Origin: Chloroflexota bacterium
Lineage (GTDB): Bacteria; Chloroflexota; Dehalococcoidia; JACPPY01
Direction: 5' to 3'
Assembly (NCBI GenBank): GCA_040754215.1
Contig: JBFMDE010000002.1
Coordinates: 1 to 61,446, forward strand
DNA length: 61,446 nt
Below, piece after piece: positions 10,617-61,446 of the stretch. Numbering within the stretch: position 1 is the stretch's first letter; each line of letters opens with the position of its first letter. Position numbers and translations under genes: made by a program. Under the pieces are notes generated by a model. That model did not search any database. It was not told the origin of the DNA and saw only the letters and a program-made list of their open reading frames with translations.

Positions 10617-11828
10617 TTACTTTGAGGGCAACCCCAGTCCCCTGAGTGCCACGATGTTGCGGAGGATTTCCGACGTCCCTCCGCCGATGGTCTGCATTAC
10701 GGACCTCAGGTAGCAGGTAGCCGGTAGGCCATGGAACAGCCTGTGTTTCGACGAGGGTAGTAACTGCCCGTGAAGGCCAAGAATCCGGGTCGCTGTATTG
10801 GCCAGACGCTGCTGGAACTCCGCTCCGTATGTCTTGGCCATAGCCGCCTCGTAGGTGGGCACCTTTCCCTCCGTGAGTATCCATGCGACCCGGTAGATCA
10901 ACAAGCGTCCAACCTCCATCTCCACCGCAAGCTCCGACAGCTTGGCCCTGACAACTGCGTCCGCCACCGGCTGCTCCCGTTTGCCATGCGTTTTCAGGAC
11001 ATAGGCCATCACGTCGCCGAACAAGAGGTAGTTGCCCATCAGGCGTTCGATTCCGGCACGCTCGTAGTCGAGTTGTTTCACTATCTGGTTCCAGCCCTGG
11101 TTCCGCTGTCCCAGCAGCGTGCTGCCGGGAAGCCGCACGTTATCCAGGTACACTTCGTTGAAGTCGTGACCGCCGGCCATGTCTAACAGCGGACGGACGG
11201 TGATCCCTGGCAGTCCAAGTTCTACGATGAACTCGCTGAGGCCGCGGTGTTTTGGCACACTCGGGTCGGTGCGGGCCACCAGGTACATGAATGAGGCGCG
11301 GTGCGCGTTGGTGATGTACGTCTTCTGACCGTTGACTATGTAGCCGCTGCCATCCCATTGTGCGCGTGTGGTGAGTGAAGCCAGGTCCGAGCCTGCCCCT
11401 GGTTCGCTCATGCCGATGCAGAAGCTGACCTCTGCCTGACTTATGCGCGGCAGGAACCATTGTTTCTGGTCTTCGCTCCCATGGGCCAGGATGGCTGGGC
11501 CCACCTGACGGTCGGCATGCCAGTGGTATGCCACCGGGGCGCCCGCACGCATCATCTCCTCTGTCAGGACCAGCCGGTCTAGGTATGTACGTCCCTGTCC
11601 CCCGTACTGCGCCGGCCAGGTCATGCCGATCCAGCCTCTTGCAGCAAGCTTGTGTGAGAGTTCCGGCGACCATCCTATTAGCCAGCCATCGTACAATGGC
11701 GTGAAGGAGCCACGAGCGTGCTCGGCGCTGAGGAACCGCCTTGCTTCGTCGCGGAAGGTTTCTTGCTCGGGCGTGAGACCGAACCTCACGTTTACATGCT
11801 CCCCTTCCGGCTTGCTAGCTGTACACAT
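10617..11828 (-). CDS. Acyl-CoA dehydrogenase
   Basis: 403 aa with an ACAD pattern (GMSEPGAGSDLAS, GGTSEILRNI). The exact start is uncertain. Confidence 0.9.
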   Translation of the reverse strand: MCTASKPEGEHVNVRFGLTPEQETFRDEARRFLSAEHARGSFTPLYDGWLIGWSPELSHKLAARGWIGMTWPAQYGGQGRTYLDRLVLTEEMMRAGAPVAYHWHADRQVGPAILAHGSEDQKQWFLPRISQAEVSFCIGMSEPGAGSDLASLTTRAQWDGSGYIVNGQKTYITNAHRASFMYLVARTDPSVPKHRGLSEFIVELGLPGITVRPLLDMAGGHDFNEVYLDNVRLPGSTLLGQRNQGWNQIVKQLDYERAGIERLMGNYLLFGDVMAYVLKTHGKREQPVADAVVRAKLSELAVEMEVGRLLIYRVAWILTEGKVPTYEAAMAKTYGAEFQQRLANTATRILGLHGQLLPSSKHRLFHGLPATCYLRSVMQTIGGGTSEILRNIVALRGLGLPSK

Positions 11829-11914
11829 GTTGCCCCCGGCTCGCAGGGTGAGTGCCCCTGCTCTCCGAAAGGCAAGGTTGATTCCCCCTGTTGATACCTG
11901 TTACACTGTGCGCC

Positions 11915-59146: not shown

Positions 59147-59214
59147 GCAGCCTCAATCCGTGCGTGCAGGTTCAAAAGGCTCATCCTCGGGATAGACCTT
59201 CGCCCTCACTCTGG

Positions 59215-59270
59215 CCCTCTCCCATCAAGGGAGAGGGAATGGCGTTTCTCCCTCCCCTGGCGGGAGGGAG
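59215..59270. repeat. Two adjacent 9-bp-stem/5-nt-loop hairpins built from CCCTC/GAGGG motifs
   Basis: CCCTCTCCC-atcaa-GGGAGAGGG (59215-59237) and CTCCCTCCC-ctggc-GGGAGGGAG (59248-59270), followed by a third G-rich tract. Confidence 0.6.
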
Positions 59271-59320
59271 TCAGAGGGAGGGGGAGAAACACGGGTCGAG
59301 ATGAAAGTGGGATAAGGTCT

Positions 59321-60151
59321 GTGGAGTTCAGGATAACCACCCTTAGCGAGAACACGGCGTCGTGGGGCCTCGTCGGCGAGTGGGGCCTGAGCATGCTGGT
59401 GGAGGCCGACGGCCTCAGGGTCTTGATGGACTGTGGCTTCAGCTTCTCCGCCGCCTACAATGCCAGGACTCTCGGCGTTGACCTCGCCTCCCTCGACCGC
59501 ATCGTGCTCAGCCACGGACACGCGGACCATACGGGAGGCCTGGACGTGGTGCTGAAGAGTACCGGCCGGAGAGAGGTCGTCGGGCACCCGGACATATGGG
59601 AGAAGAAGTACGCGCGCACCCAGGACGGTGGTGAGCGCTACGTGGGCATGCCGTCGGTACGGGAGGGGCTCGAGGCGCTGGGCGCCGGGTTCGTCCTGAC
59701 CAGGGAGCCGGTGAGGCTCTCCGACAGGGTGATGACCACCGGCGAGATACCGGTCACCGTGGACTACGAGGGTATCGAGCCGGAGCTGTACGTTCGTCGG
59801 GGCGCGGAGAGCATGCCGGACAGGCTTGCCGACGACCTGGCGCTGGTGATTGATGCCGACTTCGGCCTGGTGGTCGTTCTCGGCTGTGCCCACCGCGGCA
59901 TCGTGAACACGCTCCATCACGCCCTCAGGCTGACAGGCGGGGAGTCAATCTACGCCGTGGTCGGCGGCGCCCACCTGTTCCGCGCCTCGGAGGAGCGCCT
60001 GGAGAGGACGGTAGCGGACCTCCGTGAGATGGGTATCCAGAAGCTGGCTCTGTGCCACTGCACCGGATTCAAGGCCCTGTCGCGGCTGGCCCAGGAGTTC
60101 GGCGACGGGTCTCTACAGAACAACGCCGGCACCCGAATCGTCCTGCCCTAG
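59321..60151 (+). CDS. MBL-fold metallo-hydrolase (COG1237-like)
   Basis: 276 aa with a GTG start. SHGHADHTGG (HxHxDH) motif and the N-terminal ITTLSEN pattern of this subfamily. Confidence 0.8.
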   Translation: MEFRITTLSENTASWGLVGEWGLSMLVEADGLRVLMDCGFSFSAAYNARTLGVDLASLDRIVLSHGHADHTGGLDVVLKSTGRREVVGHPDIWEKKYARTQDGGERYVGMPSVREGLEALGAGFVLTREPVRLSDRVMTTGEIPVTVDYEGIEPELYVRRGAESMPDRLADDLALVIDADFGLVVVLGCAHRGIVNTLHHALRLTGGESIYAVVGGAHLFRASEERLERTVADLREMGIQKLALCHCTGFKALSRLAQEFGDGSLQNNAGTRIVLP

Positions 60152-60223
60152 AGACCGCTCGGTCGTAATTTCCAGCGTGTTGGCCCTTCCCCGTCCCTCT
60201 CAGGGTGCCGGGTGAACTACATC

Positions 60224-60252
60224 TTGCCTTTCCGTTCATCGCTCACTATAAT
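60224..60252 (+). promoter_or_regulatory. Candidate promoter of the nucleotidyltransferase/HEPN cassette
   Basis: TTGCCT (60224-60229), 17 nt spacer, TATAAT (60247-60252), 33 nt upstream of ATG 60286. Confidence 0.5.
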
Positions 60253-60285
60253 GAGCATATACTCAATCTTTGGAGCTATGTTTGA

Positions 60286-60852
60286 ATGCTGGGTTCACAT
60301 ATTACTACGACCATCAGTCAGAAGGTTCTGAGCTTCCTTGCCAAGTTCTCGGACAAAGAATTCTACGAGCGGCAAGTTGCTCGCAGGCTTGGTATAGCTT
60401 ACGGCTCGGCAAACCGGTCCTTGAATGAGCTGTATTCGACAGGCGCTATCACACGGAGGCGAGAAGGGAAGATGTACTTTTACTCCGTGAATGCTTCCAA
60501 TGCAGCCATAGCAGAGTACAAGAAGCTGGTAAACCTGATACTCGTTGAGCCATTAGTAGAGAAGTTGAAGGGCATAGCGGACCGCATAATACTCTATGGA
60601 AGCTGTGCCCAGGGCACGGATACTTCCCAAAGTGACCTTGACTTGTTTATCGTCGCGGATAACAGAGAGGATGTGGCTGGTGTGGTCGGCGAATTCAGCC
60701 TGCCGAAAGGCTATGAAGACCTGCATATCCAACCGGTAATCAAAACCCCTGTTGAGCTTCTGCAGATTGGGGAATTGGAACGCGCCTTCATTGAAGAAGT
60801 GGAGCGCGGGATCGTTCTCTGGGAGAGGGCTGCCAGTGAATCAAGAGTTTAA
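60286..60852 (+). CDS. wHTH-fused minimal nucleotidyltransferase (MNT-type antitoxin-like)
   Basis: 188 aa. N-terminal wHTH (RQVARRLGIAYGSANRSLNELYSTGAI) and the NTase motif LYGSCAQGTDTSQSDLDLFIV. Confidence 0.8.
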   Translation: MLGSHITTTISQKVLSFLAKFSDKEFYERQVARRLGIAYGSANRSLNELYSTGAITRRREGKMYFYSVNASNAAIAEYKKLVNLILVEPLVEKLKGIADRIILYGSCAQGTDTSQSDLDLFIVADNREDVAGVVGEFSLPKGYEDLHIQPVIKTPVELLQIGELERAFIEEVERGIVLWERAASESRV

Positions 60853-61267
60853 GCAGTGTCTTGAGAGCAAGAAAATAATCCCTTTTGAACGGGGCAAAGG
60901 ACTGATCAAGAAAGAACTCTCGACCGCTGAGAGCGACCTTTCCGATGCCAAAGCCGGCTATCAAGACAAACGCTTCAAGTGGTCAACCATCCAGGCCTAC
61001 TATTCCATGTTCCACGCAGCCAGGGCGCTCATCTATTCCAGAGGCTATCGCGAGAAGAGTCACTATTGTCTTGCCGTCGCATTGAGAGCCTTGTATGTGG
61101 AGGAAGGCAAGTTGGATGCTCAGGCAGCGCGAGACTTCCTCAGTGCTATGAACCTACGAGAGGCAGCGGACTATGAGGCCAAGTTTTCTGATTCTGGAGA
61201 TCGAGTAGTCATCGCTTCTGCCGAGAACTTCATAGGAAAAGCAAAGGTTGTCCTGGGTGTTGGCTGA
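60836..61267 (+). CDS. HEPN-domain protein (toxin-like partner)
   Basis: GTG 60836 follows GGGAGAGGG and overlaps the NTase end by 17 nt. All-helical, with YYSMFHAARALI and LREAADYE HEPN-family signatures. I did not see a canonical Rx4-6H motif. Confidence 0.7.
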   Translation: MNQEFKQCLESKKIIPFERGKGLIKKELSTAESDLSDAKAGYQDKRFKWSTIQAYYSMFHAARALIYSRGYREKSHYCLAVALRALYVEEGKLDAQAARDFLSAMNLREAADYEAKFSDSGDRVVIASAENFIGKAKVVLGVG

Positions 61268-61272
61268 CTGTT

Positions 61273-61371
61273 AACCACAAGGCCGGGTCCCGCGCCTCGG
61301 CGTGGCTGGCCCGGGAGTTCGGCGACGGATTCCTCCAGAACAACGCAGGCACCCGCATGGTCCTGCCCTAA
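61273..61371 (+). pseudogene. Orphan 3' fragment of an MBL-fold hydrolase gene
   Basis: Translates to NHKAGSRASAWLAREFGDGFLQNNAGTRMVLP-stop, colinear with the last 32 codons of the intact MBL gene (CHCTGFKALSRLAQEFGDGSLQNNAGTRIVLP-stop). No upstream coding sequence. Confidence 0.65.
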
Positions 61372-61446
61372 GGACTGCGGCACGCTCAGGTCTACCAGGC
61401 CGTGGCCCTGCTTGAACAAACCGTGAGCCTGTTTGGTAAACAGTGA

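Follow-up and report, generated by a model that had tools for sequence, protein, structure and literature searches.

Toxin-antitoxin (TA) pairs are among the most mobile prokaryotic genes, and to our knowledge the movement of their chromosomal copies without transposases or integrases is largely unexplained. Several described systems resemble the locus reported here in one respect or another. Restriction-modification (R-M) gene complexes have been found inserted with long target duplications (Nobusato et al. 2000; Furuta, Abe and Kobayashi 2010, PMC2853133); phages, integrative and conjugative elements (ICEs) and the ssrA islands of Dehalococcoides integrate at the 3' end of a tRNA or protein gene, with a surrogate of that end in attP (PMC3146451); chromosomal integrons form cassette arrays, alongside clusters of attC sites lacking an integrase (CALINs; Cury et al. 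2016, PMC4889954); and pairs of a minimal nucleotidyltransferase (MNT) and a HEPN protein have been described as TA systems (Anantharaman et al. 2013, PMC3710099), with MntA/HepT as type VII. Here, we describe an MNT/HEPN-like pair at the right end of a 61,446-nt stretch of DNA (hereafter the window; contig JBFMDE010000002.1) from a Chloroflexota bacterium of the Dehalococcoidia, where it lies behind a metallo-beta-lactamase (MBL)-fold gene and between two diverged copies of the 3' end of that gene. We consider it probable, though well short of certain, that the pair is a horizontally acquired, self-contained 1,045-bp TA cassette that integrated behind the MBL stop codon and brought a surrogate gene end with it. 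The features on which this reading draws are the following.

59321-60151, + strand: intact MBL-fold gene and presumed insertion target, an open reading frame (ORF) of 276 aa with a GTG start and matches to Pfam Lactamase_B / Lactamase_B_2
60086-60160, + strand: direct repeat copy 1, made up of the final 21 codons of the live MBL gene, its TAG stop and ~9 nt
60161-60222, + strand: left spacer of 62 nt, GC-rich and locus-specific, not conserved in cassette relatives and unlike the sequence right of copy 2 (pairwise alignment)
60224-60252, + strand: cassette promoter, TTGCCT (-35), 17 nt, TATAAT (-10), scoring 10/12 in a promoter scan and nearly invariant in 13 related cassettes
60241-60264, + strand: putative operator of overlapping palindromes, GCTCACTATAATGAGC and GAGCATATACTC, across and after the -10 box, in invariant alignment columns
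60286-60852, + strand: winged helix-turn-helix (wHTH)-nucleotidyltransferase (NTase) of MNT type, 188 aa, presumed antitoxin and autoregulator, with the Pol-beta motif YGSCAQGTDTSQSDLDLF
60836-61267, + strand: HEPN-domain protein, 143 aa, GTG start, presumed toxin (Pfam PF05168, 7.3e-13), its gene overlapping the NTase gene by 17 nt
61268-61305, + strand: right spacer of 38 nt, GC-rich and locus-specific, with a decayed MBL-like stretch, HKAGSRASAW, 57% identical to the live gene (codon table)
61306-61380, + strand: direct repeat copy 2, the orphan MBL 3' end, with 21 codons, a TAA stop at 61369-61371 and ~9 nt, in frame and 86% identical to copy 1
61381-61446, no strand: right flank to the contig end, GC-rich and host-like

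The window takes in contig C2 from end to end. This contig is one of 122 that make up a 1.68-Mb metagenome-assembled genome (MAG, here G000), 90% complete and with a genome GC of 0.61, and the locus occupies the contig's final 1.4 kb, 3' of hisD-hisC-hisB and the MBL-fold gene. A preliminary description of this DNA had reported a lower GC between the two copies, and the profile bears this out, with values of 0.465-0.53 over 60200-61200 against 0.62-0.70 in the left flank (module GC 0.50, host GC 0.63-0.67). GC at third codon positions (GC3) is 0.58 and 0.56 in the two cassette genes and 0.76-0.87 in hisD, hisC, hisB and the MBL gene. The near-consensus promoter reported between the copies was also recovered, and it is the only sigma-70-like site in the region. 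Relatives of the cassette were collected from species-representative genomes, mostly of Dehalococcoidia, which gave 22 loci with the pair; in lower-GC Dehalococcoidia the cassettes have a GC of 0.42-0.46. Their nucleotide homology to the window is limited to a span from ~60212-60242 through 61244-61261, and when 13 upstream regions are aligned, the conserved part sets in precisely at the -35 hexamer (60223/60224). This onset of conservation and the homology span together place the edges of the mobile unit at 60223 and 61267, so that its 1,045 bp run from the -35 box through the HEPN stop codon.

The copies that bracket this unit had first been aligned by hand, and their similarity holds under formal alignment: blastn pairs 60081-60158 with 61301-61378 at 84.6% identity over 78 nt (E 3.4e-18), in register and in frame, local alignment of the two copies stands at z 34-39 above shuffled controls, and a repeat search returned an in-register 116-nt direct repeat (60043-60158 / 61263-61378) of 75% identity overall. 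The preliminary description had the duplication cover 32 codons plus about 10 nt, with ~86% identity over the best 66 nt. The second figure stands, as 86.4% identity is reached over the terminal 22 codons, stop included, with 0, 2 and 7 differences at first, second and third codon positions, but the 10 codons upstream, back to a His codon (60056 / 61276), reach only 57%, with 6, 4 and 3 differences. Beyond the stop codon the likeness ends after ~9 nt, and the longest identical run between the copies is 15 nt. The orphan His codon begins 8 nt past the HEPN stop (61265-61267), rather than the roughly 5 nt estimated at first, and no MBL coding sequence lies upstream of it, as had been noted. The HKAGSRASAW stretch retains the family-consensus R-A-S-A when set against 120 homolog C-termini; the 57% MBL-like stretch upstream of codon -22 would fit a decayed non-coding arm of the incoming DNA. 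A 14-nt match (13/14) between the MBL gene interior (59977-59990) and the decayed spacer (61287-61300) lies 90 nt out of register and is probably due to chance.

A scan of the whole genome for direct repeats 300-6000 nt apart revealed sister cases of the same layout. In contig C12 (8931-10751), an acyl-CoA-dehydrogenase-like gene is followed by a FitA-RHH/PIN (VapBC-like) pair, and the bracket of this pair, a 35-nt repeat of 94% identity, is made up of the gene's last 11 codons and stop (TAG in the gene, TAA in the orphan). In contig C32 (14676-16244, minus strand), an RHH/MazF pair with an insert GC of 0.51 lies behind a nitroreductase-like gene and is bracketed by a 108-nt repeat of 93.5% identity, whose orphan codes for the identical 33 C-terminal residues, all differences being synonymous. 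HicAB-type modules in contig C4 (20764-22745) are separated by repeats of 91-270 nt, with a repetitive extragenic palindromic (REP)-like palindrome inside the 270-nt repeats, while the other direct-repeat pairs of the genome are internal gene repeats or REP-like copies and not TA brackets. Further TA-like pairs follow the C12 bracket (10832-11839), and the nitroreductase-like gene of C32 is partly N-masked.

A fourth protein-gene case is found in the closest cassette (L136-L139), whose NTase is 82% identical and which sits 12 nt behind selB. Directly after its HEPN stop codon, an orphan reads GAC GAA CGG GTG TTG AGG TAG, and the selB gene itself ends in GAT GAG CGG GTT CTC AGG TAG; both encode DERVLR-stop, 5/5 differences are synonymous, and the longest identical run at this bracket is 9 nt. 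Over these cases the repeats measure 29, 35, 78 and 108 nt. Their right end falls 3-12 nt past the stop codon and their left end is variable (7, 11, 22 or 33 codons), and the TA operon of C2, C12 and C32 runs in each case in the same direction as its target gene.

The way in which live and orphan ends differ carries much of the argument. When the four protein-gene cases (C2, C12, C32 and selB) are pooled, 16 of the differing codons are synonymous and 4 non-synonymous, and 18/23 nucleotide differences are at third positions. Only 26% of the possible single changes in these stretches are synonymous, which gives P 4e-7 under neutrality; a one-copy-neutral model, in which the live copy accepts synonymous changes only and the orphan is free (expected synonymous share 0.44), still gives P 1e-3. 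C2 by itself has 7/9 differences at third codon positions. The C2 orphan and the adjoining gene share the residues G17, L19, Q20 and V28, which are rare among the 120 family C-termini, and the orphan retains the consensus states R-A-S-A and F18 where the adjoining gene is derived. Since they have kept frame and stop, differ almost only synonymously and, at C2, retain consensus residues, the orphans are best read as displaced functional alleles and not as decaying duplicates; by this pattern they would have belonged to functioning genes during most of the period over which the copies have diverged. The GC3 of the two C2 copies (0.86 versus 0.90, hand count) does not distinguish the native one; being host-like in both, it suggests that the immediate donor was probably a related GC-rich lineage, in agreement with the intermediate GC of the cassette.

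Brackets also occur at related cassettes. An anchored test, which compared the 170 nt before the -35 box with the 150 nt after the HEPN stop in 18 distinct loci, returned a significant bracket in 7/18 (empirical p<=0.007), and the targets vary: the selB end, the 3' end of a tRNA-Pro, a 65-nt site that we call X and another intergenic site. At locus L124, an Asd gene comes after the intact tRNA-Pro (2633-2709). Behind it, the MNT/HEPN pair stands between two further copies of the tRNA end, the first 95% identical and the second more diverged, and a HicB-like gene with an RHH-MazF pair precedes copy number four. The second gene in this row codes for aspartate-semialdehyde dehydrogenase, normally a housekeeping enzyme, and lies module-like between the intact tRNA-Pro and the 95% end copy (L124:2633-3848). 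In L116, on a 1.3-Mb contig, a small co-oriented gene has its stop codon 17 nt before the repeat. Two loci with a 76%-identical NTase have the pair followed by a second minimal nucleotidyltransferase gene without a HEPN partner (L140:4103-4393 and L141:2474-2890), and neither has a bracket repeat. Empty or differently filled counterparts were also sought at the target genes: orphan copies or a cassette were seen in 0/68 selB loci (metagenome scan, best match 75% identical, no strict empty site), and orphan gene ends or a cassette in 0/80 MBL loci.

The bracket repeat of L114, L118 and L122 is X, a conserved element of 65-85 nt that in L115 and L119 stands only to the right of the cassette. Thirteen copies were found in six loci (L114, L115, L118, L119, L122 and L135; for instance L118:3068-3131). 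In L135 an MFS gene (-), X and an SDR gene (-) are contiguous and form an empty site; the same flanks (93% and 89% identical) lie 3.1 kb apart in L122, where the room between them is filled with modules in the order MNT/HEPN, amidohydrolase, MazEF, and the flank alignments overlap by ~21 nt at the 3' end of X. Between the same flanking genes, L114 contains the three modules of L122, 86-94% identical but ordered amidohydrolase, MNT/HEPN, MazEF, plus a RelB-ParE pair. One empty and two differently ordered occupied sites show that members of the cassette family insert and reshuffle as units at repeat-marked joints. The empty site looked for in related genomes thus exists for the X hot spot of the relatives, in L135 as compared with L122, though not for the MBL locus itself. 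X is non-coding; several Dehalococcoidia carry 2-5 copies of it per genome, and these lie at module joints without exception. Rfam contains no family that matches it, the 13 copies share no conserved fold, and a supposed resemblance to RNase P RNA found no support in either.

The most serious competitor to an incoming surrogate end is insertion with long target duplication, in which staggered breaks ~75-110 nt apart are filled in, the gene end is thereby copied and the two copies later diverge in place; we regard this as possible but rather unlikely. The published class fits in many ways, as it consists of addiction modules with a direct repeat of 30-400 bp, without a mobility gene and sometimes overlapping a gene 3' end or tRNA (PMC2853133), and the varying repeat lengths, the right boundary just past the stop codon and the lack of a linked recombinase are equally in its favor. 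However, decay of an untranslated orphan predicts mostly non-synonymous changes, which is at odds with the 16 synonymous against 4 non-synonymous codons observed (P about 1e-3) and with the retention of frame and stop, and the C2 orphan holds ancestral residues that were lost from the live gene. Furthermore, the published repeats are near-identical (44/46 and 417/423; PMC2853133) and those at C2 are 85% identical, and the inner X copies travel with their modules in the arrays.

The preliminary description had also offered the possibility that a TA insertion deleted a second, tandem MBL paralog down to its last ~32 codons. The orphan is indeed a genuine MBL-family C-terminus and a second MBL paralog exists in the genome, on contig C35, but the orphan is 85% identical to the adjoining gene and 77% to that paralog, and a relic of a whole gene does not account for the sharp fall in identity from 86% to 57% at codon -22. 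No tandem pair of the family was seen in 80 loci with MBL homologs, where L087 alone has a second MBL-fold gene, a distant one of 25% identity, and the layouts at C12, C32, selB and tRNA-Pro would each need an independent relic, which with C2 makes three in this genome alone. The recurrence at other genes, together with the identity break, leaves this account with very little credit.

Nor do we give much weight to an integron-type gene cassette or CALIN remnant served by an integron integrase elsewhere, which seems very improbable. The relatives do occur in shuffled-order, TA-rich arrays of small modules, integrons are known in some Chloroflexi (PMC4889954), and a GTTRRRY-like motif is present at the 5' edge of several X copies. 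On the other hand, DNA folds of both strands gave no attC-like hairpin in either window repeat or in X (z -0.8 to +1.3), X lacks a conserved fold, the cassette has its own promoter, and the repeats are gene ends and not attC sites. In the 90% complete assembly, both tyrosine recombinases are Xer-like, scoring 79 and 115 bits on TIGR02249 (cut-off 265) with best matches to XerD/XerC. An array of dif modules, or an integrative mobile element exploiting Xer (IMEX), with dif-like borders is unlikely as well, because the repeats are coding gene ends. A chimeric join would suit a feature in the last 1.3 kb of a MAG contig with an abrupt change in GC, but an assembly artefact is scarcely credible when copies of 85% identity have no k-mers of assembler length in common, the sequence to the right is host-like and GC-rich again, and the layout is found within C12 and C32 as well as in assemblies made independently from other organisms, one of them with a 1.3-Mb contig.

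The preliminary description had called the two cassette genes an overlapping wHTH-NTase / HEPN pair, and domain searches support this. The NTase matches Pfam Polbeta (6.7e-8) and NTP_transf_2 (4.9e-7), with weak TrmB/MarR matches in its first 70 residues, which align to ArsR/CadC wHTH structures, and 708 homologs were found at E<=1e-40. It also carries the Pol-beta motif G-[GS]-x9-13-D-x-[DE] expected of MNT antitoxins. The nearest solved structure to the HEPN protein is AF0298/UPF0332 (2HSB, E 5.5e-7), and an alignment of 10 homologs contains the invariant motifs GYREKSH and NLREAADYE. Assignment to type VII was borne out only in the Pol-beta motif: the NTase scores 28 bits on NCBIfam NF047752 MntA_antitoxin, under the 60-bit cut-off, the HEPN protein has no NCBIfam match and is not of the HepT (DUF86) type, and its motif is R-x3-H. 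With these departures, the pair looks like an MNT/HEPN toxin-antitoxin module, though not securely one of the characterised type VII. In about a third of related cassettes (L114, L116, L117, L121, L122, L123, L125 and L131 among the loci) the HEPN gene is truncated, internally deleted or frameshifted and the NTase gene is intact. Loss of the toxin half is typical of the decay of toxin genes.

From what is known of these families, the NTase would repress its own promoter through the wHTH domain, for which the palindromes over the -10 box are the probable binding site, and would hold the HEPN protein, a presumed RNase-type toxin, inactive; cells that lose such an addictive pair would be counter-selected. 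The anatomy of the locus and its comparison with relatives suggest, for its arrival, that the incoming DNA brought along an allele of the final ~75 nt of the MBL gene and that recombination took place within this segment, so that the live gene would keep a complete end and the other copy would be orphaned behind the cassette. The same repeats would permit precise excision with the intact gene restored. As the cassette encodes no recombinase, a trans-acting enzyme or host recombination would have to do the work. Addiction would explain how inserts flanked by deletion-prone repeats persist, an argument that was made previously for R-M systems (PMC2853133). A foreign composition, defined edges, a bracket that recurs and orphans that look like alleles all speak for the minimal integrated TA cassette with a regenerated target 3' end that had been proposed from the sequence at first sight.

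Several points nevertheless weigh against an integrated cassette with a surrogate end. No integrase lies between the repeats or on contig C2, and the recombinases of the genome, two Xer-type tyrosine enzymes (C17 and C1) and one large serine enzyme (C7), are all on other contigs. The bracket is present in only about 40% of related cassettes, the repeats have neither an attC-like hairpin nor an obvious shared core, and a single cassette family with unrelated bracket sequences at different loci is awkward for a single sequence-specific recombinase; such diverse targets argue against one sequence-specific integrase, and the identical runs of 15 nt at C2 and 9 nt at selB are too short for efficient RecA recombination. 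An empty site for exactly the MBL locus was not found, there being no close relative (best MBL homolog 67%). The codon-position signal of C2 alone is modest, with P 0.008 against a uniform null and ~0.04 against the one-copy-neutral model (hand calculation). The invariant HEPN motif is R-x3-H and not the canonical R-x4-6-H, the R six residues before the His varying between R, K and Q. Finally, contig C2 ends 66 nt past the orphan; as the preliminary description had remarked for the window, the right-hand context is truly missing, and no contig in the assembly was found to overlap or continue this end when its final 75 and 151 nt were searched by blastn against the entire genome.

In the relatives G041-G047, too, the tyrosine-recombinase matches are all on contigs other than those of the mapped X copies (G042-G044 and G046). 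The serine recombinase of the source genome (C7:1057-2703, 548 aa) lies at a contig start after a 306-aa ORF, and its 3' end runs into tRNA-like sequence; the region is probably an integrated element that broke the assembly. As for the target, JGI names the MBL homologs as dihydropterin-aminobenzene-phosphate synthase of the methanopterin pathway, and the closest among 5.8e9 proteins searched is 67% identical. Exact-protein look-ups (first residue V or M) found no other assembly with an identical MBL, NTase or HEPN product, and neither the hisB-MBL synteny nor an orphan gene end or adjoining TA pair was seen in 40 class-level relatives and 80 contig loci with MBL homologs. The spacer between hisB and the MBL gene (59190-59290) contains a REP-like palindromic element, CTCCCTCCCCTGGCGGGAGGGAG (translation ..SPSPGGREIEGGG..), which is dispersed over about 21 places on 16 contigs of the genome and is the one contained in the 270-nt repeats of C4.

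Taken alone, the C2 locus is modest; the wider pattern is the interesting part. The module is foreign and has defined edges, two allele-like copies of the target end bracket it, and in relatives the members of its family move as units; to this we add, as an inference, its integration by recombination inside the final ~75 nt of the MBL gene with a surrogate end, and its excision via the repeats. A bolder and quite tentative extension is that Dehalococcoidia have a form of integron-like gene capture without attC sites or a cassette-linked integrase, in which small cassettes with promoters of their own, mostly TA pairs, would each bring a surrogate end of the gene, tRNA or site behind which they insert, and would stack, reshuffle and leave, restoring the target; the synonymous divergence would then reflect frequent exchange, within the population, of alleles with and without an insert. 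In the literature searched, we found no description of TA pairs bracketed by allelic or allele-like gene ends. C2, C12 and C32, with the arrays of the relatives, give a concrete anatomy to such movement, with exact module edges, insertion after the stop codon and a duplicated target end whose copies behave like two functional alleles. If this is confirmed, orphan gene ends with synonymous-only divergence would be a simple signature of recent insertions in metagenomes.

Compared with the MNT/HEPN pairs already described, the module is similar in its antitoxin-first overlapping genes, its Pol-beta NTase with a G-S...D-x-D motif, its HEPN partner and its high mobility. It differs in that the HEPN protein belongs to PF05168/UPF0332 (AF0298) and not to HepT/DUF86, in the N-terminal wHTH of the NTase, in a score below the MntA cut-off and in the R-x3-H motif. 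Chromosomal integrons and CALINs share with the family small single-function cassettes, many of them TA, with an order that varies between genomes (as in L135, L122 and L114) and a repeated site between them. Unlike theirs, these cassettes have no attC hairpin and no integron integrase, they carry their own promoters, and a gene end, a tRNA end or a conserved 65-nt sequence serves as the repeated site. With elements that integrate at att sites, the locus has in common the target 3' end at both borders, an intact target ORF and a displaced orphan end, and the relative L124 adds tandem accretion at tRNA-Pro; in contrast to those elements, it is only 1 kb long and encodes no integrase, the targets of the family are unrelated and identity is unbroken only over short stretches (15 nt at C2, 9 nt at selB).

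Insertion with long target duplication offers a similarly mixed comparison. The likeness lies in a small addiction-type module without a mobility gene, with deviant GC, a direct repeat of more than 30 bp and an overlap with a gene or tRNA 3' end. In the terms of that class, the insert is well below 20 kb (~1.1 kb, NTase and HEPN only) and the repeat well above 30 bp (78 nt at 85%; 116 nt at 75%), while a single-copy target in an empty genome is seen here for the X hot spot of the relatives only. What sets our cases apart is a TA rather than an R-M cargo, repeats of 85-94% identity whose almost exclusively synonymous differences give them the look of two alleles, and relatives that stand in shuffled arrays. 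If the anatomy proposed here is confirmed, the long target duplication route known for R-M genes would extend to TA cassettes and would link to integron-like arrays.

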